Shown: in pieces, positions 11,293-40,603 of the stretch
How the letters are laid out: each line of letters opens with the position of its first letter
Position numbering within the stretch: the first letter of the stretch is position 1
NCBI GenBank assembly: GCA_034422835.1
Contig: DAOUJJ010000013.1
Location: 12,618-76,617, forward strand
From: Dehalococcoidia bacterium
GTDB lineage: Bacteria; Chloroflexota; Dehalococcoidia; UBA6926
Reading direction: 5' to 3'
DNA length: 64,000 bases
Notes under the pieces: generated by a model
Told to the model about the DNA's origin: nothing
The model's database searches: none
The model's input: the letters and a program-made list of their open reading frames with translations, nothing else
Position numbers and translations under genes: made by a program

Positions 11293-11685
11293 ATGAACCA
11301 AGTGGACTTCTACCGACACAAGCTCGCCTACGAGACGGACTCGGCAGACCTCTTCGAGTCCCTCCAGAACGATGAACCGATCGTCGTAGTAGACGGCCGC
11401 GCCCACTTCGCGTATGGAGAGGAGCACATCCCCGGCGCGATAAACCTGCCTCACCGGGAGATCAACGCCGAGTCCACCGCATCCTTGGACAAGTCGAGGA
11501 CATACGTCTGCTACTGCGACGGTATCGGTTGCAACGCCTCCACCAAGACGGCACTAAAGCTGGCTGAATTGGGGTTCGAGGTACGTGAGCTCATCGGCGG
11601 CCTGGTCTGGTGGCGGCGCGACGGCTACGCCACCCACGGCACCGGCGCCACCGCAGACGACCCCAACATCCGCTGCGCCTGCTGA
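11293..11685 (+). CDS. Rhodanese-like single-domain sulfurtransferase
   Basis: Active-site loop CYCDGIGCN. The track ORF starts earlier (11215) but that N-terminus is repeat-encoded; the start is taken at MNQVDFY. Confidence 0.6.
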   Translation: MNQVDFYRHKLAYETDSADLFESLQNDEPIVVVDGRAHFAYGEEHIPGAINLPHREINAESTASLDKSRTYVCYCDGIGCNASTKTALKLAELGFEVRELIGGLVWWRRDGYATHGTGATADDPNIRCAC

Positions 11686-11693
11686 CTCCCCCC

Positions 11694-12371
11694 CTAAACC
11701 CTCACCTGCTCCACCTCACCACCCAGCACCACGTCTAGCACCTCCAGGATGGCCAGGGTCGGCACGCGGTCCCCGATGTCCAGGCCGACGTATCCCCACA
11801 CCACCCCGCCGTCCGGGAGGATGACGAACGTCGCAGGAGCGGCCACGCCGTCCCCCAGCAGGTTGAATACGCCGTAGCTCGTCGACACGTCCTCGTTCGT
11901 GTCCGCTAAAACGGGGAATTCCGCCCCGGCCAGCACCTCCATCCGCTCCGCATCGACCAGTAAGTCAGTGCTGATCGCCGCCAGACCGACGTTTCGGCTC
12001 TCAAACTCAACGTAGAAGCTCTGCAACTCGACCAGTTGCTGCTGGCAGATGCCTCAACCGTAACTACGGTAGAAGACAATCACGAGCGCCTCTCGCCCCG
12101 CGAGCAGATCATCCAGTGTGTACCGCTCGCCCGTCCCCGTTGGCAGTGAGAAATCCGGTGCTTGCGGCGCCTCAGGCTCAGGAGTCTCCGTTGGAACCGC
12201 GGTGGCCGTGGGCAAAGGCGTGTCCGTGGCAGACGGCGTTGGGGTGAACGAGGGTTCAGGAGTGGGAGCGGCTGTTGGCGTTTCCCCTGAGCAGCCGGCG
12301 ATGATGACGGCAATTGTCGCTAAAATGGCAACAAATAGCGTTGGCGGATGTCCCGGAAAAAATTTCCTCAC
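11694..12371 (-). CDS. Candidate selenoprotein: TlpA/ResA-like thiol:disulfide oxidoreductase lipoprotein with UxxC motif (in-frame TGA at 12054-12056)
   Basis: Track ORFs 12054..12371 and 11694..12026 are in the same frame, separated only by TGA. Read-through gives …VIVFYRSYG-U-GICQQQLVEL…, which aligns to the WCAPC redox motif of the TlpA paralogue at 39905..40603. Lipobox IIAGCS plus T/P-rich linker. SECIS-like hairpin 15-31 nt downstream. Confidence 0.6.
12023..12044 (-). ncRNA. SECIS-like stem-loop downstream of the in-frame UGA
   Basis: mRNA reads …UGA GGCAUCUGCCAG CAACU-GGUCG-AGUUG CAGAGC. A 5-6 bp stem with GGUCG apical loop (GU in loop) begins ~15 nt after the UGA. Confidence 0.35.
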
Positions 12372-12430: not shown

Positions 12431-12466
12431 CAAAAACCGTAGAGGCGCGTTCCACAACGCGCCCCT
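12431..12466 (-). terminator. Rho-independent terminator downstream of rplT
   Basis: Minus strand: AGGGGCGCGTT-gtgg-AACGCGCCTCT followed by ACGGTTTTTG. Confidence 0.6.
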
Positions 12467-13903: not shown

Positions 13904-16315
13904 CTACCTCAGCACCCCGCTCTCCGTGCCCTCCTTAATCTCCTCCTCGGACAGCCCAAGTACTGAACTGTACACATACTCATTATCCTCGCCGATCCAT
14001 GGCGCGCGGTTGGCCGCGGTTGCCTTGGACAGCGAGGGAATCGCCGGCAGCCCGTGGTGCGAGAGCGTTCCCCATGTCGAGTGCGTCGATTGCACGATGT
14101 GTCCACGTTCTCGCAAATGCGGATCGTGGTACAGGTCCTCGCTGTTCATCGCCACGCCCGCCGGCACCCCGACCTTCTGCAGCATGTTAAGAAGCTGGTG
14201 CGAGGTGAACGCCTGCGCCCACTCACTTATCTCATGGTCGATTTCGTCCCGATTCGCCCGACGGCCCGCTGCATCTGCGAATCGGGGATCGTCCGCCCAG
14301 TGCGGCGCTCCCATCGCCTGTGCCAGCGCGCGCCATTGCTCGTCCGTCTCGCACGCGATGACGATCCACGTGTCCGGGTACAGGCACGCATACGCCCCGT
14401 ACGGCGCGTAGTGGGCATTTATCGGCTCGTTATAGCCGACGCTGCCCCAGATGTTCCCGTTAATCGTGTAGTCCAGGATGGCCGGACCCATCATCGAGCC
14501 CTGGCCGTCCACCTGCGCGATTTCGATGAACTGCCCGCGGCCCGTCACGTCGCGGTACTCCAGCGCAGCGGCGGTGGAGAGCGCCACAAATGCGGCGCCC
14601 ACGTAGTCCGGTATCACGCCCTTCGCATGGTTCTGCATCGGCGAGTCCGGGTGCCCCCACAGCAAGGACAGTCCCGTCACCGCCTGCAGGTTGTTCCCGT
14701 ACGTCACCCAGTTGTTCAGTGGCCCCTCGGAACCCATCCCCGGCATACCGATCTGGATGACCCCCGGGTTGATCTTCGTCAGGTCGTCGTAGCCAAGACC
14801 GAGCCGCTTCATGACCGTCGCGCTGAAGTTATCGACGACAACATCGCTGTCCTTGACCAGTTGGCGGAAAAGGTCCTTGCCGCCATCGGAACGCAAATCG
14901 AGGGTGCAGCTCAGCTTATTGCGGTTCATATCGGGGAACAGCGGGCGCGTCGGCTCACGGTTGGCCTCAAGGCTTTCGGACTCCACCTTGATGACCTCCG
15001 CGCCATAGAAGCCGAGGAACATCGTCCCGATCGGTCCCGCGAATGCCCGCGTGATGTCTGCCACGCGAATGCCGTCCAACAGCGCGTCGTCGGGCGCTTT
15101 GCCGTTCGTCGGCGCAGGGTACGTGTCACGCCGCGGCGCAACCGAATCAATCTCGGCCAGCACCTCATCGCGATGCTGGTCCAGCAGCGGGGCAGGGCGC
15201 GTCTGGTTCCACGGCGTGGCTGACATGATGAACGGCTGTCCCGGCGTTTCATACTCGCCCACGACAGGATGCGTCACCTTCTGGAACCAGCCCCGCGACC
15301 GCATATGGTCGTCCGTTACAAAATCCTCGAACGTGTTGACGGGACAGCAGGCCAGCCCCAGCCGCTGCGCTTCCTCCACGAACTCATCGCGGTCGAACTG
15401 CTCAACGAACGACTGTATGAGGATCTGCGCCAGGTCCTCATTGTCCGTCCGGTACTGGGACGAGTCCCAGTCATCGCCGGACAGCACCGCGTCCTCCATC
15501 CACTGTCGGGACAGAACGCGCCAATGCCCGGTCATGAAGATCGCGATCTGGACGTACTTGTCATCCTTCGTCCGATAGATATTCGCGGGGCCGCCGCGCG
15601 GCCCCTGGCGCAACACGATCTCGCTCCGCTGGCTGTAGCGCGCAATCGTCCCGACCGTCGCGAACGTCAGCGCCTCTTGCAATGAGAGGTCGATGCGCTG
15701 GCCGAGCCCTGTCGCCCGCCGATGCCGTACGGCGTTGATCGCCAGGTACGCGCCATGAACTGCCGCAAGCTGCGCCCCGATCTGGCACGGCAGCACGACG
15801 GGCGCGCGCTCGTCGTCGCCCTGGCTCATCATCACGCCGGACATGGCCGAAATCACCGCCTCATTCGCTGTGAACGCGCTGTGCGGTCCCGTCTGCCCGA
15901 ACGGCGTGAGCGAAACCGTCACAAGGCCGGAGTTCAACTCCTCAAGACGCGCATCATCAATACCAAGTGAGGCCAACTGCCCCGGGGGAGTGCATTCGAC
16001 AAAGATATCCGCCCGCTCGATGAGCTTCTCAAGGGTCTCCCGGCCGCCGGAGTCCTCAACGTCAAGAACGATGCTGCGACGATTCAGATTGGCGTTGAGA
16101 AAAGGAATGCTGCGCTCGACATCCGCGATGTCGCCCGCGAACGGCGCGTGCATCCGATTCGGATCGCCCCCCGGCGGCTCCACCTTGATAACGTCCGCGC
16201 CGAGCCCGGCAAGGTACCCCGCGCAATACGCCGCGGGAATCTCCCCAATCTCAACAACCCGCAAATGCCCAAGCGCCGTATCCGCCCCACCATTAGTCAT
16301 AGCCACACTCCCCAC
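13904..16315 (-). CDS. Tandem-fused CoA-transferase family III protein (two CaiB/BaiF domains in one 803-aa chain)
   Basis: Two repeats of the CaiB signature (…VVEIGE…AGYLAGLGADVIKVE…; …IRVADIT…GFYGAEVIKVE…). Confidence 0.8.
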   Translation of the reverse strand: MGSVAMTNGGADTALGHLRVVEIGEIPAAYCAGYLAGLGADVIKVEPPGGDPNRMHAPFAGDIADVERSIPFLNANLNRRSIVLDVEDSGGRETLEKLIERADIFVECTPPGQLASLGIDDARLEELNSGLVTVSLTPFGQTGPHSAFTANEAVISAMSGVMMSQGDDERAPVVLPCQIGAQLAAVHGAYLAINAVRHRRATGLGQRIDLSLQEALTFATVGTIARYSQRSEIVLRQGPRGGPANIYRTKDDKYVQIAIFMTGHWRVLSRQWMEDAVLSGDDWDSSQYRTDNEDLAQILIQSFVEQFDRDEFVEEAQRLGLACCPVNTFEDFVTDDHMRSRGWFQKVTHPVVGEYETPGQPFIMSATPWNQTRPAPLLDQHRDEVLAEIDSVAPRRDTYPAPTNGKAPDDALLDGIRVADITRAFAGPIGTMFLGFYGAEVIKVESESLEANREPTRPLFPDMNRNKLSCTLDLRSDGGKDLFRQLVKDSDVVVDNFSATVMKRLGLGYDDLTKINPGVIQIGMPGMGSEGPLNNWVTYGNNLQAVTGLSLLWGHPDSPMQNHAKGVIPDYVGAAFVALSTAAALEYRDVTGRGQFIEIAQVDGQGSMMGPAILDYTINGNIWGSVGYNEPINAHYAPYGAYACLYPDTWIVIACETDEQWRALAQAMGAPHWADDPRFADAAGRRANRDEIDHEISEWAQAFTSHQLLNMLQKVGVPAGVAMNSEDLYHDPHLRERGHIVQSTHSTWGTLSHHGLPAIPSLSKATAANRAPWIGEDNEYVYSSVLGLSEEEIKEGTESGVLR

Positions 16316-29629: not shown

Positions 29630-30000
29630 CACGGTCAGTGACTACGCCTAGATGCAGGCGTGGGGCTTTCCGCGTATTGCATGCACACTCGCGGCAAGCC
29701 CCGCTGTAACAAAGCGCAGTCGGGATAAAGCGAGCGGATAACGGAGAGCGCGCGGCTCTCCACAGTTATGGAGACCAACCGGACAAGCAAGCGCGGGAAA
29801 GTCAGCACACCCTGCCGATCCAACAACCCTCACTCCGGCAGGCGCCCCTGACTCCCACACACGGGGAGGAGCAGATGCACTCACAAGAACCCTGGCAGTC
29901 GCGAAGCCCCACGGGCAGCGTGAATAAATCTTTGATTTCATCTACACTTGGAAAGACGGGACGCAAAGGTCCACATCACAGTTACGGAAGGGGGCTTCCT

Positions 30001-33000
30001 GTGAAGCGCAAAGCACTAGTTATCCTGACGGTCGCGATCCTCGCGTTCGCCATGATCCCGGCCCTCGGGGCGGGCGCGGCGGTTGGCACGGTCAAGATCG
30101 TTACCCCGGATCAGCTGGCCAACCCCACGGGGAAGACCGGCTCGGCCTTTGAAAAGCTCAATGCCGCGGACTACGTCTCCGACAAGACCGGTATGGAGAC
30201 TAGCTTAGAGGATGCCGGTGGCACCCTTTACGCCGTTATCGATGATAATGACGGCGTTTCCAACGCTTTGACTGACTACTACGCCTACTTCACCGATGCA
30301 AGGCCAGGCACCGCAGATGGTGGTGGTAACGCCTACAACATTGATCCGGGCACGACAACGCCATCCACCACGAACGGCATAGTCGCTGATTGGGTTACAG
30401 ATACTGTTGACCCTGTTGCCATGGGGGATCTTGTTGCCCGTACGGACGATACGGCCACCACTGACGTCAATGAGTCTGACGGCGCCGATGACCTCGAGAT
30501 TGGCGATAGGAACCGGAATGGTGAGATCGACTCTGGCGACCTTCTGATTGAGATTGGGTACTTCGTGCCGCCTGTCGTAGACGATCCGGATACTACGGAT
30601 AATGAGCAAGAGGACCTGCAGTTCGAAGCCGTGCGAACCGTGAATGTCGGAAACGCGTTCCAGGATGCCAGCAGAAACGGCAAGGAAGCCTTCCTTAACT
30701 TGAACACGATTCCCGCTTTCCCTGCGGCACGTGACGCTGCAGATCAGTTGGACACCACTGAGGTTGGTGCCTTGCGCATCAGGTTCGCATCTGCGGGTGT
30801 TAACGAACTCAAGTATGGCGATGATGCGGCTGTGGAACTTCGAGGCAAGAGCCGGGTGCAAGTCCGGAGTTCGTCCGGCGATCCGATTCGGATCACCGTG
30901 AGAGAGAAGAATCTTGTCGAACTCGCCAAGCAGAAAGCCGGGGTTAATCACGCAGCGCTGACTGCGACGGACACTGACGGAAACTCCACGACCGACTCAC
31001 GTGATTCCGGCGTTTTCGTCGGCATGTTTGGCGTGATTCGCAATGACTTCAAGGAAGCGATTGCAACGTGGACGCCGACTCCCACAGACTCTGCGCAGTC
31101 CGAGGAAATAACTGTGATTGCCGCAGGCGGTACACCTGCCGCCGACGAAGTTCTGCCAGTCGAAGCGGAGACTGATTCTGCAAGCGATAATTTCGAGTTG
31201 GCGATGACGGAGATCACGCTTCCGGGCGTCAACAAGGATAACGTTCTCAAGGCTAATACCACAGAAACGCGTAACGACGATGTTACCGTAACGATCAAGG
31301 ATCCAGAGCGTAATGATACGCCCGATGCTGCTGCCGACCCGCCTGTGGTTGATAAGGCAGACGCTGACGTTGATGATGAGATAAGAGTCACTGCTGTAAC
31401 TGTTGGAGATCCAGATCCGCAAACAGGTGCGGTGGTCATCACAGTGGCCACGAAGCATGGAGCCGACGCTACTACAGCCACCGATGGTGACACTCTAGAA
31501 GATGACATATTCGTCCTTACCTACACGACCACTGATCTCAATAACAACATCAACGACCTGATTGCAGCCGTTGCCGCGACAGACAAGGACGCAGATCGGG
31601 ATGAGGCGTTCTACGATTTCTGCCAGGGCACAACCGAAGGCAAGGAGTGCGCCGAGAGGGACAAGTTGGAGGCGGCCCTGAAGGCTCATGTTACAAATCT
31701 GGGCCTTTCATCTGCGACCGATCTTACGGGTGATGATGCCAGCGCGCTGGTGAACTCGCTCGTCGGCGCGGAGCACGGCGATACCCTCACCGTGAGCTAC
31801 GCAGATGCCGACCCCAGCAGCACGCGCACAGATACTGCTGAGGTGGACCTGAACGCCCCGACGATCGGCTCGCTTGATCCTGCAAACAACTCCTACGTCG
31901 ATAACGATGACTTCTCGGTGTTCTTCAGCGTGACGGATCCGGATTCGGGCATCCCGGAGGACGCCCATGATGCGACTGAACAGACCATCAGAGCCGGCAT
32001 GGCTTACGTTGAAGAGGTAGTCACGTTTGGCGAAGGCGACGCTGATCCTGTTTCCAACTTGGCAAACGGTGACGAAGCGGTTCTCGATGTGGATGACACC
32101 ATCCAGGATGGCGAGCGCTACGATCTTGAGATTGACGTGACGCAAGCCGCGGAAGCCGCCGAAGGTGATGAGGATACCGACGCGAAGACGGTGACGGTCC
32201 GGGTCAAGATTACGGCTTATGACCTTGCCCGAAACTTCGTCACAAAGACGTACGAGTTCGTGATCGATAACATTGATCCCGTCCTTGAGGACGCCATCAC
32301 CGGATGGGGCATCTCAAGCAGCGCGACAGCACTGCGCGCCAACGGCGATGAGGGCGCATACGTCTTGGTGGAACAGCAGAGGGACAGAATTGTTCTCGTG
32401 TTCGATGACGCAATCCAGGGCGATGCCCTGCTGGAACAGAACATCCAGGTGTCCGGCACCAGCGTCTCAAGCATCGAGTGGCTCGATAACACCGGCAGCA
32501 ACGTCATCAGCGTCGGCGATGCAGACATGTCAGAGACTGCCGGTGACCTTGACTTCAATGCCAAGACTCGGACAAGTGCCGATGCCCCTGATGTTGTCAG
32601 GGAGTTGGGCCTCCGGACAGAAACCAATGGTCAGGATGCGCGGCACCTCCTGTTCCTGACGCTTGAGGCTGATCTCGCTACGGATGCCCGCCCAACCATC
32701 GAGATTGATGGCGGCGACCTGACCGACCTCGCAGGAAACCTGAATAAGAGCGACCACGAGAGGCGCCCGGATGACCGCCTTGCGCCGATCTTCAAGATCA
32801 GTGTTGAGGAAGCCTTGAGCAACGACACCTTCAACGTGACGGTGGAAACCTCTGAGGACTTGAAGCGCAGGCCTACCGCGTCCATCTCCAATGGCAGAAT
32901 TCTTCGCCCCATCACCCTGAAGGCAGGCACCGGAAACACGTGGGCGCTCTCCACTGACCGGAAGGGACTTAACCTCGTTGCCCGTGAGGGCAGGCAGGAC

Positions 33001-34122
33001 GGTGTCTACGAGGTCACGGTTGAGGGCAGTGACGAAATTGGCAATGAGGCAATGGCCACAAGCGGCAAGTGGGAGTTTGACACCCAAGCCAACAACGGCG
33101 TCCTGCCCAACCGTGGTGGCGTGGCCGCTGATGACGGCACCAAGGCAAAGGCTGATCTCGCCCAGAAGATCGAGAGGAACGAAGTCGTCTTCCTGAACCT
33201 GCTCTTCACCGCTGAGACCGGTGAGTACACCGGCGACACCAAGAAGAAGGTCAACATCAGCAGCCTGAGCCTTGATACCCTGGCGGATGATGCGATTGAT
33301 TCCAAGAACAAGCTCGTAGCCAGTCCCACGGTCGAGAGCACCTTGGACGTGGATGCCGGTTCGGCGCAGAGCTCGGACGGCATCAAGCACGTCATCGCCC
33401 TCGCGGACCTCGCGATTGGCAGCTACCGCCTGAACGTGGACTACGCTGACGAGGCGGGCAACACGGGCAAGTTCGGCTACGTGTTCAAGATCACCGCCCC
33501 GGCCCCCGTAGAGATCGCCGTGGTACCGGGCTGGTCCTTGGTGTCCATCCCTGGCACCCCGGTTGACTCGAGCGTCGCTGGTGTCTTCGAAGGCTCGTCG
33601 GTGACGGATGTGTGGAGCCTGGATAACGAGACCAAGCGCTGGCAGTACGCTGGCAAGGATGCGAACGGCGAATGGGTGGAAGGCACCCTGCCGCAGATCG
33701 TGGCCGGCCGCGCGTACTTCGTCCGCAGCACCACCTTCGACCCGATCAAGGTCCTGACCGAGCGGTTCAGCCCGGAGACCACGCCGTCGCAGTACGTCGT
33801 GACCAGCGGCTGGAACGGCATCGGCTACACCCCCGCGGGCAGCGAGACGGCGATCAGCGTCGACGGCTACCTGAGTTCGCTCGGGGCCAGCGGATGGGGC
33901 ATGATCCGGATGTGGAACGCGGACGCGACCCCGCCGCAGTACGAGACCTACTTCGCCAGCGGCGCGATGACCGACGGCTTCCCGGACGGTGACGGCAACG
34001 CTGCCTGCGCAACGCCAACGTCCGATTGCGACGCTGACAACATTGCTGCTGGTGTAGCGAAGGTTGAGAAGGGCAAGGGCTACCTGCTCTTCGCGACCCG
34101 CAACGGAGTCATCGGCGGCTAA
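30001..34122 (+). CDS. Giant secreted acidic cell-surface protein with dockerin/EF-hand-like Ca-binding loops (S-layer/adhesin-like)
   Basis: GTG start after SD GGAAGGGGG. Signal peptide VKRKALVILTVAILAFAMIPALGAGAA. D/T/E-rich throughout, DRNRNGEIDSGDL-type loops; 1373 aa. Confidence 0.6.
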   Translation: MKRKALVILTVAILAFAMIPALGAGAAVGTVKIVTPDQLANPTGKTGSAFEKLNAADYVSDKTGMETSLEDAGGTLYAVIDDNDGVSNALTDYYAYFTDARPGTADGGGNAYNIDPGTTTPSTTNGIVADWVTDTVDPVAMGDLVARTDDTATTDVNESDGADDLEIGDRNRNGEIDSGDLLIEIGYFVPPVVDDPDTTDNEQEDLQFEAVRTVNVGNAFQDASRNGKEAFLNLNTIPAFPAARDAADQLDTTEVGALRIRFASAGVNELKYGDDAAVELRGKSRVQVRSSSGDPIRITVREKNLVELAKQKAGVNHAALTATDTDGNSTTDSRDSGVFVGMFGVIRNDFKEAIATWTPTPTDSAQSEEITVIAAGGTPAADEVLPVEAETDSASDNFELAMTEITLPGVNKDNVLKANTTETRNDDVTVTIKDPERNDTPDAAADPPVVDKADADVDDEIRVTAVTVGDPDPQTGAVVITVATKHGADATTATDGDTLEDDIFVLTYTTTDLNNNINDLIAAVAATDKDADRDEAFYDFCQGTTEGKECAERDKLEAALKAHVTNLGLSSATDLTGDDASALVNSLVGAEHGDTLTVSYADADPSSTRTDTAEVDLNAPTIGSLDPANNSYVDNDDFSVFFSVTDPDSGIPEDAHDATEQTIRAGMAYVEEVVTFGEGDADPVSNLANGDEAVLDVDDTIQDGERYDLEIDVTQAAEAAEGDEDTDAKTVTVRVKITAYDLARNFVTKTYEFVIDNIDPVLEDAITGWGISSSATALRANGDEGAYVLVEQQRDRIVLVFDDAIQGDALLEQNIQVSGTSVSSIEWLDNTGSNVISVGDADMSETAGDLDFNAKTRTSADAPDVVRELGLRTETNGQDARHLLFLTLEADLATDARPTIEIDGGDLTDLAGNLNKSDHERRPDDRLAPIFKISVEEALSNDTFNVTVETSEDLKRRPTASISNGRILRPITLKAGTGNTWALSTDRKGLNLVAREGRQDGVYEVTVEGSDEIGNEAMATSGKWEFDTQANNGVLPNRGGVAADDGTKAKADLAQKIERNEVVFLNLLFTAETGEYTGDTKKKVNISSLSLDTLADDAIDSKNKLVASPTVESTLDVDAGSAQSSDGIKHVIALADLAIGSYRLNVDYADEAGNTGKFGYVFKITAPAPVEIAVVPGWSLVSIPGTPVDSSVAGVFEGSSVTDVWSLDNETKRWQYAGKDANGEWVEGTLPQIVAGRAYFVRSTTFDPIKVLTERFSPETTPSQYVVTSGWNGIGYTPAGSETAISVDGYLSSLGASGWGMIRMWNADATPPQYETYFASGAMTDGFPDGDGNAACATPTSDCDADNIAAGVAKVEKGKGYLLFATRNGVIGG

Positions 34123-39904: not shown

Positions 39905-40603
39905 CTAGCCGAGTATCTCTGCGATCCTCTCATCGAGGACCGTGCCGTTCACCACGCCTGCCCATCGCGTATGCACCGTGCCGTCCTGCTGGATGAAGAA
40001 CGTCACCGGCAGCCCGCCCACGCCGTAGTCGATGGTCGCCTCCCCGTCCGGGTCGGTCACCATGACGTAGCCATCGTCGACGGGAACGTTGAACTCCTCG
40101 ATGAAAGCGAGCGCGTCCTCATTCGTATCCTGGATCGCAACGCCGATGAACCGGACTCCCTGGTCCTTGTACCGCTCGTGAGCCTCGACCAGATGCGGCA
40201 TCTCAACGCGGCACGGAGCGCACCATGACGCCCAGAAATTCACCACGATTGGCGAGCCCTCGAAGTCGGACAAGCTCACGTCTCCCGCCCCGTTCAACTG
40301 AGAAAGAGTGAATGACGGCGCTGCGATGCTGGTGCGTGTCGTCGTATCCATCGGCATCGTCTCGCGCGTCAGCAGGCTGTACGCGAGGAGGCCAATGAAC
40401 GCCGCCATCACCACAACCGCCACACTGATGACGACAATCCCTGGGCGTTGCCGATTCTGAGGGCCCAGACGGGCGTCATGAACCGGCTCAGCGATGCTGT
40501 CAGTATCGCCATCGTCTGCCGCCCGTCCCTGTTCCGGCCCATCGCCGGACATATCGGGAGAATCTCTCTCGTCGGCGTCATCCATAAACCACATTCCCCG
40601 CAC
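39905..40603 (-). CDS. TlpA/ResA-like thiol:disulfide oxidoreductase (membrane anchored), Cys version
   Basis: NFWASWCAPCR redox motif and N-terminal TM. Paralogue of the Sec-containing redoxin at 11694..12371. Confidence 0.8.
   Translation of the reverse strand: MRGMWFMDDADERDSPDMSGDGPEQGRAADDGDTDSIAEPVHDARLGPQNRQRPGIVVISVAVVVMAAFIGLLAYSLLTRETMPMDTTTRTSIAAPSFTLSQLNGAGDVSLSDFEGSPIVVNFWASWCAPCRVEMPHLVEAHERYKDQGVRFIGVAIQDTNEDALAFIEEFNVPVDDGYVMVTDPDGEATIDYGVGGLPVTFFIQQDGTVHTRWAGVVNGTVLDERIAEILG

Follow-up and report, generated by a model that had tools for sequence, protein, structure and literature searches.

Prx-like selenoproteins and a split redoxin gene

Selenoproteins described as "Prx-like" belong to the peroxiredoxin (Prx) domain family pfam00578 and carry a thioredoxin-like UxxC motif, in which U is selenocysteine (Sec), where true Prx proteins have TxxC or TxxU (PMC1088965, PMC2398784, PMC9312934, PMC13188914). 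This family of Prx-like thiol:disulfide oxidoreductases with UxxC or UxxU motifs (Kryukov and Gladyshev 2004) has been known since 2004-2005, and reviews give one or two Sec residues per protein. Its members are abundant in marine metagenomes, among them the "Prx-like protein" of the Sargasso Sea and "Prx-like 1" of the Global Ocean Sampling (GOS) study (PMC2398784). Here we examine a redoxin gene in a 64,000-nt stretch of DNA from a Dehalococcoidia bacterium (GenBank assembly GCA_034422835.1, contig DAOUJJ010000013.1, positions 12,618 to 76,617), referred to below as the window. The gene had been recorded as two minus-strand open reading frames (ORFs), 12054..12371 and 11694..12026. As judged from comparative sequence analysis, the in-frame TGA that separates them almost certainly encodes Sec at the active site of a thioredoxin-fold redox protein tethered to the membrane, in what is a marine Dehalococcoidia bacterium.

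The two ORFs constitute one gene of 225 codons interrupted solely by this TGA (plus-strand 12054-12056), as the initial annotation had proposed, and direct reading of the sequence finds the frame open past the TGA as far as a TAG at 11694-11696. The read-through product begins VRKFF...IIAGC with a lipobox, passes through a Thr/Pro-rich linker, and continues ...ALVIVFYRSYG-[TGA]-GICQQQLVELQSFY, so that the motif region reads ...VIVFYRSYG-TGA-GICQQQLVELQ.... Its description as a lipoprotein of about 225 residues with a lipobox, a Thr/Pro-rich linker and a thioredoxin fold is supported. The lipobox and linker can be read in the sequence, and the Pfam AhpC-TSA profile (E-value 7.4e-24, 84.5 bits) matches residues 70-191, which correspond to profile positions 4-122 of 124. 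Since this one domain crosses the TGA, the codon interrupts a single domain and is not a boundary of two genes. Of 102 family ORFs, at least 71 have a hydrophobic segment with a lipobox-like Cys after it; most of the others have either a lipobox missed by the crude pattern that was used or a hydrophobic segment resembling a signal anchor. The linkers of the family have a median length of 42 residues and consist to 71% of Pro, Thr, Ser, Ala and Glu.

By the operational definition in the published descriptions, which is what sets the family here, the gene as read from its sequence is a member of the known Prx-like selenoprotein family. It matches pfam00578 (84.5 bits against a cutoff of 26) and has UxxC in place of TxxC. 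It also shares with described members a bacterial selenocysteine insertion sequence (SECIS) directly after the UGA and an abundance of relatives in marine sources. It differs from them in that the clade to which it belongs is lipoprotein-anchored through a Pro/Thr-rich linker, carries the motif FYRxxxUxxCxxQLxEL, and includes tandem forms with two or three Sec residues.

The best match among NCBIfam models is NF040769, SelL-related redox protein, at 46.2 bits, which is below the 120-bit cutoff and spans only about the first 100 of 173 profile positions. The same model is the best match for six relatives and for a more distant Cys-containing homologue, P0008, and these seven sequences from three phyla score 50-78 bits, all below 120. 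The group formed by NF040769, PRX_like2 and selenoprotein L shares with the window protein the motif context FYRG-x-W-[C/U]-x-x-C; besides the subthreshold score, it differs in that its Cys forms (CPxC...QLxEL) lack the hairpin described below. Models for PrxU, AhpC and PrxQ fall far under their cutoffs. NF041057, the Rcas_1661 thioredoxin-like (seleno)lipoprotein, gives 18 bits against a cutoff of 190, with only the signal peptide and linker matched, which does not place the protein in that family.

The initial annotation had called the protein TlpA-like. Membrane-tethered thioredoxin-fold proteins of the ResA, TlpA and DsbE (CcmG) type do carry a CxxC motif on the outer face of the membrane and are similar in topology, but the window protein has YG-U-GIC rather than WCxxC, scores 33 bits with the ResA model against a cutoff of 170, and gives no DsbE or TlpA match. 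On sequence grounds it is Prx-like or SelL-related and does not belong to the TlpA family.

Among solved structures, its nearest relatives by sequence are Aeropyrum pernix BCP (2cx3) and Mycobacterium tuberculosis AhpE (1xxu, 1xvw, 4x0x), with E-values near 1e-8. Alignment to 2cx3 and AhpE covers query residues 4-129 and extends over the whole fold. It places AhpE FFPLAF-T-GIC-QGEL opposite FYRSYG-U-GIC-QQQL of the window protein, so that T-G-I-C faces U-G-I-C. The Sec residue takes the place of the Prx Thr, and Cys109 that of the peroxidatic Cys. However, the catalytic PxxxTxxC and Arg of Prx proteins are lost: the AhpE alignment shows Arg where Prx has the motif Pro, Sec in place of Thr, and Pro in place of the catalytic Arg. 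Because this triad is not kept, Prx-type peroxidatic chemistry is not expected, and thioredoxin-like UxxC exchange is more likely.

The in-frame TGA and its downstream hairpin

Searching 185,579 species-representative genomes yielded 80 loci, with 174 relatives in all. The relatives come mostly from metagenome-assembled genomes (MAGs) of marine Dehalococcoidia, Chloroflexota or SAR202; Latescibacterota and Spirochaetia contribute a few. Their proteins are 40-94% identical to that of the window. A first metagenome scan with the protein alignment confirmed nothing. In the first protein search, at least 11 database "proteins" stopped exactly at ...FYRSYG, ...FYRSFR, ...VFYRAFW or ...VFFRAWW, and many such entries open with the C-terminal half of a redoxin domain, being gene-caller pieces between successive TGAs.

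Homologous sites were collected with a pattern in which the critical codon could be any stop or Cys. The pattern found 121 sites in 85 sequences, and the codon was TGA every time. One further locus that it did not catch (L031) also has TGA, masked by an upstream frameshift. In total, TGA stands at 122 of 122 sites in 86 sequences (85 loci and the window), and TAA, TAG or a Cys codon at none. For five of the loci (L001-L005) the DNA was read directly, and all five have the in-frame TGA at this codon. TGC or TGT encodes the second motif Cys in 115 of 115 unique sites.

More distant homologues carry Cys where the UGA stands. Examples are P0008 (WCTFC) and 29 Cys-form genes (WCPxC). The initial annotation had left it to homologues to reveal whether this codon is TGA or Cys, and the split between near and distant relatives supplies that answer. 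It had also aligned the TGA with the first Cys of CxxC in a second redoxin of the window, 39905..40603. BLASTP reproduces this, placing the TGA opposite the first Cys of WCAPC (28% identity, E=2e-06), although at such identity the second redoxin is a distant superfamily relative and not the close paralogue it had been taken for.

Translation of the half downstream of the TGA is directly supported by its pattern of substitution. Among 17 orthologues, with dS relative to the window of about 0.3 to 1.1, the median ratio of nonsynonymous to synonymous rates (dN/dS, or omega) is 0.18 upstream (34 codons) and 0.13 downstream (94 codons, those of the SECIS excluded). The downstream value and the invariant second Cys together exclude a pseudogene, as they do genuine termination at the TGA with reinitiation beyond it. 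In 12 of 16 orthologues the first 33 nt past the UGA match the window exactly, though synonymous sites elsewhere are near saturation.

Three of these relatives call for separate mention. The orthologue at L003:9500-10420 (TARA scaffold_12, 334 kb) keeps the TGA and the SECIS, yet its frame shifts at least three times within the gene, as a result either of gene decay in that lineage or of faulty assembly. Similar frame shifts occur in P0003, on an 86-kb contig. The close orthologue L011 derives from bin APA_bin_32, apparently a sponge-metagenome bin. Together with the double CaiB/CoA-transferase III gene beside infC-rpmI-rplT in the window, this points to a SAR202-like, possibly sponge-associated member of the Dehalococcoidia.

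The minus strand at 12023..12039 can form the hairpin G-CAACU-GGUCG-AGUUG-C, which begins 14 nt past the UGA and has a 6-bp stem and a 5-nt loop. It is a stem-loop directly downstream of the UGA with a small apical loop containing G, as the published SECIS description has it. A counterpart of the form N-CAR-CU / N-GNN-G / AG-YUG-N (alignment columns 18-34) follows every UGA of the family at a fixed position and is built from the codons of Q-L-x-E-L, which in the window are those of Q-L-V-E-L. RNAalifold independently recovers the hairpin core. The initial annotation had already noted the stem CAACU-GGUCG-AGUUG with GU in the apical loop as SECIS-like, and the covariation, codon choice and specificity for UGA forms reported below strengthen that view. 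The extension by CUGC/GCAG that it had added is not supported, since only 68% of cells pair and the extension competes with the G18-C34 closing pair.

The E. coli fdhF gene contains a mini-SECIS of about 17 nt with a GGUC loop and a spacer of 11 nt from the UGA. The window hairpin resembles it in length, in short fixed spacing, and in having G and U in a small loop (GGUCG in the window). It differs in its longer spacer (14 nt), in having no bulged U, and in its shorter stem.

Selection on the hairpin at the RNA level is directly supported by how its bases vary. The third base of the Gln codon and the first base of the second Leu codon covary (G-C 55, A-U 45, G-U 13, A.C 2; odds ratio 95), with two A.C mismatches observed where about 23 are expected under independence, and both changes are synonymous. 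The closing pair occurs in all four Watson-Crick types (G-C 67, U-A 8, C-G 6, A-U 2). The stem Glu is GAG in 115 of 115 cases, against 65% elsewhere in the same genes, and the second stem Leu is YUG in 112 of 115, against 50%. The Gln/Leu covariation persists in both halves of the data when divided by GC content at third codon positions (GC3). When the Gln codon is compared with the adjacent Gln codon, the association is absent (p=0.12, opposite direction).

Overall, 95.5% of cells are paired, compared with 89.0 +/- 0.7% in shuffles (0/500) and no more than 37% when the register is slid. Changes on both sides affect 55 cells, compared with 19 +/- 10 in shuffles (0/500). Among loci with several domains, 15 of 23 have different yet complementary pair types among the domains of one genome. 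The p-values given here treat sites as independent, an assumption from which such within-genome contrasts and the following control are free.

For this control, Cys-form genes with the same peptide motif were fetched by a DNA pattern that left all synonymous stem positions free (29 loci and P0008), and were compared with Sec forms at equal GC content (0.555 vs 0.559). All five core pairs are intact in 102 of 107 Sec forms, compared with 4 of 20 Cys forms (Fisher p=1e-12). The Glu codon is GAA in no Sec form (0/107) and in half of the Cys forms (10/20); the A.C mismatch is found in 2/107 and 10/20, respectively; and G is the first loop base in 106/107 and 5/20. Mean hairpin energies are -8.7 kcal/mol for Sec forms and -3.2 kcal/mol for Cys forms. 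Because the stem is intact in Sec forms and mostly not in Cys forms, the hairpin goes with the UGA, as a SECIS would, and its restriction to UGA genes is thus directly supported. This codon contrast also offers a simple, reusable test for distinguishing a SECIS from a hairpin that arises by chance codon choice.

The codon in the loop (columns 25-27; window 12030-12032) also differs between the two groups. It is G-initial, encoding Val or Gly, in 106 of 107 Sec forms, and in Cys forms it is mostly the Lys codon AAG. The SECIS element therefore appears, on this alignment, to constrain the amino acid at that position.

Alternative explanations and the predicted mechanism

The reading that we favor as a whole is that of one gene for an extracytoplasmic U-G-I-C Prx-like lipoprotein, whose UGA would be decoded as Sec by means of the downstream hairpin. 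We put its probability, as judged from sequence, at about 0.92. The initial annotation had proposed a UxxC selenoprotein with Sec at the first motif position and a SECIS downstream, and the invariance of the TGA, the omega values, the covariation and the Cys-form control all bear this out.

Several observations weigh against this reading. The stem is short, with only 6 bp, and in a single-sequence fold of the 60 nt after the UGA the RNA is no more stable than shuffled sequence (z=+0.87), which is why the structure is argued comparatively. Rfam gives no match at the gathering threshold for the window and none at E<=10 for the hairpin region. Phylogenetic non-independence of the sites inflates the p-values. 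In GC-rich genomes, the codons favored for QLxEL are partly self-complementary, which made the control with Cys-form genes necessary, and one Cys form, P0008, keeps the stem. Finally, genes for selA, selB, selD and tRNA-Sec are found neither in the 64-kb window, as the initial annotation had already stated for selA, selB, selD and selC, nor in about 0.6 Mb of related flanks. ARAGORN detected no tRNA-Sec in the window or in 63 loci, and the window contains no tRNA; tblastn searches of the window and every locus with the E. coli SelA, SelB and SelD proteins matched only thiL. A gene with AIRS and AIRS_C domains near the L001 homologue was considered as selD and rejected, as it is thiL (282.6 bits vs a cutoff of 184).

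Evidence for the Sec machinery comes at the level of the clade, from the literature. BSepDB lists Dehalococcoidia MAGs with 46-49 selenoproteins, among the richest of bacteria (PMC13326102). In a sponge metagenome, two bins with SAR202 as closest 16S relative have one and four copies of selA and one selB each (PMC5649159 Table S4).

The absence of Sec machinery from the window and related flanks lends some weight to a reading in which UGA specifies a standard amino acid (Trp, Cys, Arg or Gly), through a change of code or through near-cognate suppression stimulated by the hairpin, which as a structure downstream of the codon could promote read-through. A genome-wide change is countered by the use of TGA to end 5 of 27 long ORFs of the window, conserved genes included (TAA ends 12 and TAG 10), so that UGA is a normal stop in this genome and has not been reassigned. 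Suppression without Sec would leave the position of the codon and the form of the RNA as coincidences. The UGA falls exactly on the redox Cys, the classic site of Sec/Cys exchange; the hairpin has SECIS hallmarks in its fixed spacing and its small apical loop with a conserved G followed by U; and reports describe the clade as selenoprotein-rich and as possessing selA and selB. We therefore hold decoding as a standard amino acid to be very unlikely. More improbable again is a genuine stop, by which the locus would yield an N-terminal lipopeptide and a C-terminal fragment initiated separately at TTG 12026. Gene callers do annotate two ORFs in every database entry examined, for this gene and for its relatives, and the TTG lies only 27 nt past the TGA. 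But termination here would cut the thioredoxin fold between strand beta1 and helix alpha1, within the active site, and the stretch from the TGA to the nearest possible start (GICQQQLVE) shows conservation at the protein level, the Cys included. The supposed start also varies, being TTG in the window and GTG in relatives, and the TGA is never replaced by TAA or TAG, unlike the true stop of the neighboring rhodanese gene, which is TGA or TAA.

A pseudogene could have arisen by a nonsense mutation of TGC to TGA in a Cys redoxin, followed by decay of the downstream half. A single substitution would suffice, the orthologue L003 has apparent frameshifts, and P0003 and L004 come from error-prone assemblies. 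Yet TGA at every site in at least three phyla, with no Cys codon among them, an omega downstream as low as that upstream, and the invariant second Cys do not describe a decaying gene; conservation and dN/dS effectively refute this explanation and leave it only a minute chance. Smaller still is the chance of a sequencing or assembly error at the TGA, a concern that the initial annotation had raised. Metagenome assemblies may always contain single-base errors, but a 192,839-bp ENA metagenome scaffold from a second assembly (ERZ23495130, scaffold_222) matches the window at 100% identity over 20.3 kb, the identical gene is present on a Logan contig, and TGA stands in the 85 other loci. These include closed long-read chromosomes, and complete genomes with the gene are, for example, OZ242019.1, OZ241912.1 and OY282365.1.

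Under Sec decoding, the expected course of events can be drawn by analogy with better-known systems. From the established bacterial Sec pathway we infer that SelB carrying Sec-tRNA(Sec) would be recruited by the hairpin and that Sec would be inserted at residue 106. SelB binding, selenium insertion, export, lipidation and the substrate all belong to this predicted part of the account. The protein would then be exported and, as its lipobox suggests, lipid-anchored through Cys27, with the Thr/Pro-rich linker presumably keeping the redox domain away from the membrane. The selenolate of Sec106 may act as the attacking nucleophile and undergo selenylsulfide/dithiol exchange with Cys109. In this way the U-x-x-C pair would cycle between selenolate/thiol and selenylsulfide, as expected by comparison with thioredoxin-fold oxidoreductases such as ResA and TlpA. 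The predicted role is that of a thiol:disulfide (or hydroperoxide) reductase outside the cytoplasm.

The corrected annotation recovers a predicted functional extracytoplasmic selenoprotein from two meaningless split ORFs. The biological stakes of the single gene are modest, as both family and mechanism are known in outline. To the picture of marine Dehalococcoidia as organisms that use selenium heavily, it contributes a well-documented case whose comparative SECIS signal is unusually clean.

Tandem relatives, neighboring genes and features of the locus

The selenoprotein is of a kind already known and does not represent a new kind of system, and its tandem relatives with two or three Sec residues are the most notable side finding. 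Two Sec codons occur in 14 reading frames of relatives, which are arranged as tandem multi-domain lipoproteins. A form with three, L079:2719-4827 (OY282385.1), encodes a three-domain lipoprotein of about 700 residues with three UxxC motifs, each UGA having its own SECIS. Tandem forms are also found at L001:9617-11035 and in L005, L038, L066 and L070, with long Pro/Thr-rich linkers between domains, and other loci have two or three adjacent single-domain genes. It is conceivable, if rather doubtful, that the window gene and its relatives make up a distinct clade of surface-tethered, apparently Sec-only redoxins widespread in marine and sponge-associated Dehalococcoidia, lacking a curated model and presenting tandem arrays of two or three UxxC selenol redox sites outside the cell. 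If the tandem multi-Sec lipoprotein architecture is uncatalogued, these proteins would be among the most Sec-dense bacterial polypeptides known.

In two unrelated loci, the second gene upstream of the tandem Sec-redoxin is CMD/AhpD-like (PF02627) and adjoins an NAPRTase gene (L001:7517-8089 and L005:7388-8026). The GOS study reported Prx-like and AhpD-like selenoprotein genes as neighbors.

The coordinates of the features within the locus are collected in Table 1. The terminator-like hairpin suggests that the redoxin is a separate transcription unit from rplT, though such a consensus scan says nothing on function.

Table 1. Positions of the selenoprotein gene and its elements in the window
Feature	Position	Strand	Details and basis
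Complete selenoprotein coding sequence, 225 codons	11694..12371	-	GTG start 12369-12371, Sec-UGA 12054-12056, TAG stop 11694-11696
Predicted lipoprotein-type signal peptide, residues 1-27, MRKFFPGHPPTLFVAILATIAVIIAG-C, lipobox IAGC	12291..12371	-	Sequence reading, without a dedicated signal-peptide predictor
Thr/Pro/Ala/Glu-rich linker, residues 28-69, from lipid anchor to redox domain	12165..12290	-	Sequence reading
AhpC/TSA (Prx-like, thioredoxin-fold) domain, residues 70-191	11799..12164	-	PF00578, 84.5 bits vs cutoff 26
UGA predicted to be read as Sec, residue 106, first position of U-G-I-C	12054..12056	-	TGA at 122/122 sites; aligns with Cys in homologues
TGC encoding Cys109, second UxxC residue, at the Prx peroxidatic Cys position	12045..12047	-	TGC/TGT in 115/115 unique sites
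Putative SECIS hairpin, 17 nt, G-CAACU / GGUCG loop / AGUUG-C; loop 12029-12033	12023..12039	-	Comparative data
Terminator-like hairpin, 11 bp then T-run, between rplT stop and redoxin start	12441..12466	-	Consensus scan only

The rhodanese gene 11293..11685 on the plus strand is convergent with the redoxin. The initial annotation was right that it adjoins the gene in the window, but it is not a conserved neighbor (an HNH gene takes its place in L002 and a TIR-domain gene in L003) and is unrelated to the selenoprotein finding. Its end reads ...IRCAC-TGA-LPP-TAA, and the TGA was considered as a C-terminal Sec codon. This candidate was rejected: six relatives have TAA at that codon, so the TGA of the window is an ordinary stop.

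No second selenoprotein was found in the window by a scan for ORF pairs split by TGA and filtered by coding score, a search in which two candidates, at plus-strand 10631 and minus-strand 59712, were left without a Pfam check. The naive form of the scan was too noisy; with the filter, ten candidates remained, including the redoxin. The majority of the rest are antisense to long ORFs of the plus strand, namely those for phosphoenolpyruvate (PEP) carboxylase and Rho, both confirmed by Pfam, and 29710..34119, which has no Pfam match. At plus-strand 10631 the upstream stretch is only 25 codons long, and the downstream part is a DUF1801 gene that starts from its own ATG. The few TGA stops among the long ORFs seem low for a GC content of 60% and might reflect avoidance of UGA stops in a selenoprotein-rich organism, although the sample comprises few ORFs, at least one of them spurious.

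Two other ORFs of the window deserve mention. The plus-strand ORF 29710..34119 has 1,469 residues and belongs to no Pfam family at E<=1e-5, and several of its antisense frames are also coding-like. On the minus strand, 13904..16315 is an 803-residue double CaiB/CoA-transferase III gene that adjoins infC-rpmI-rplT.

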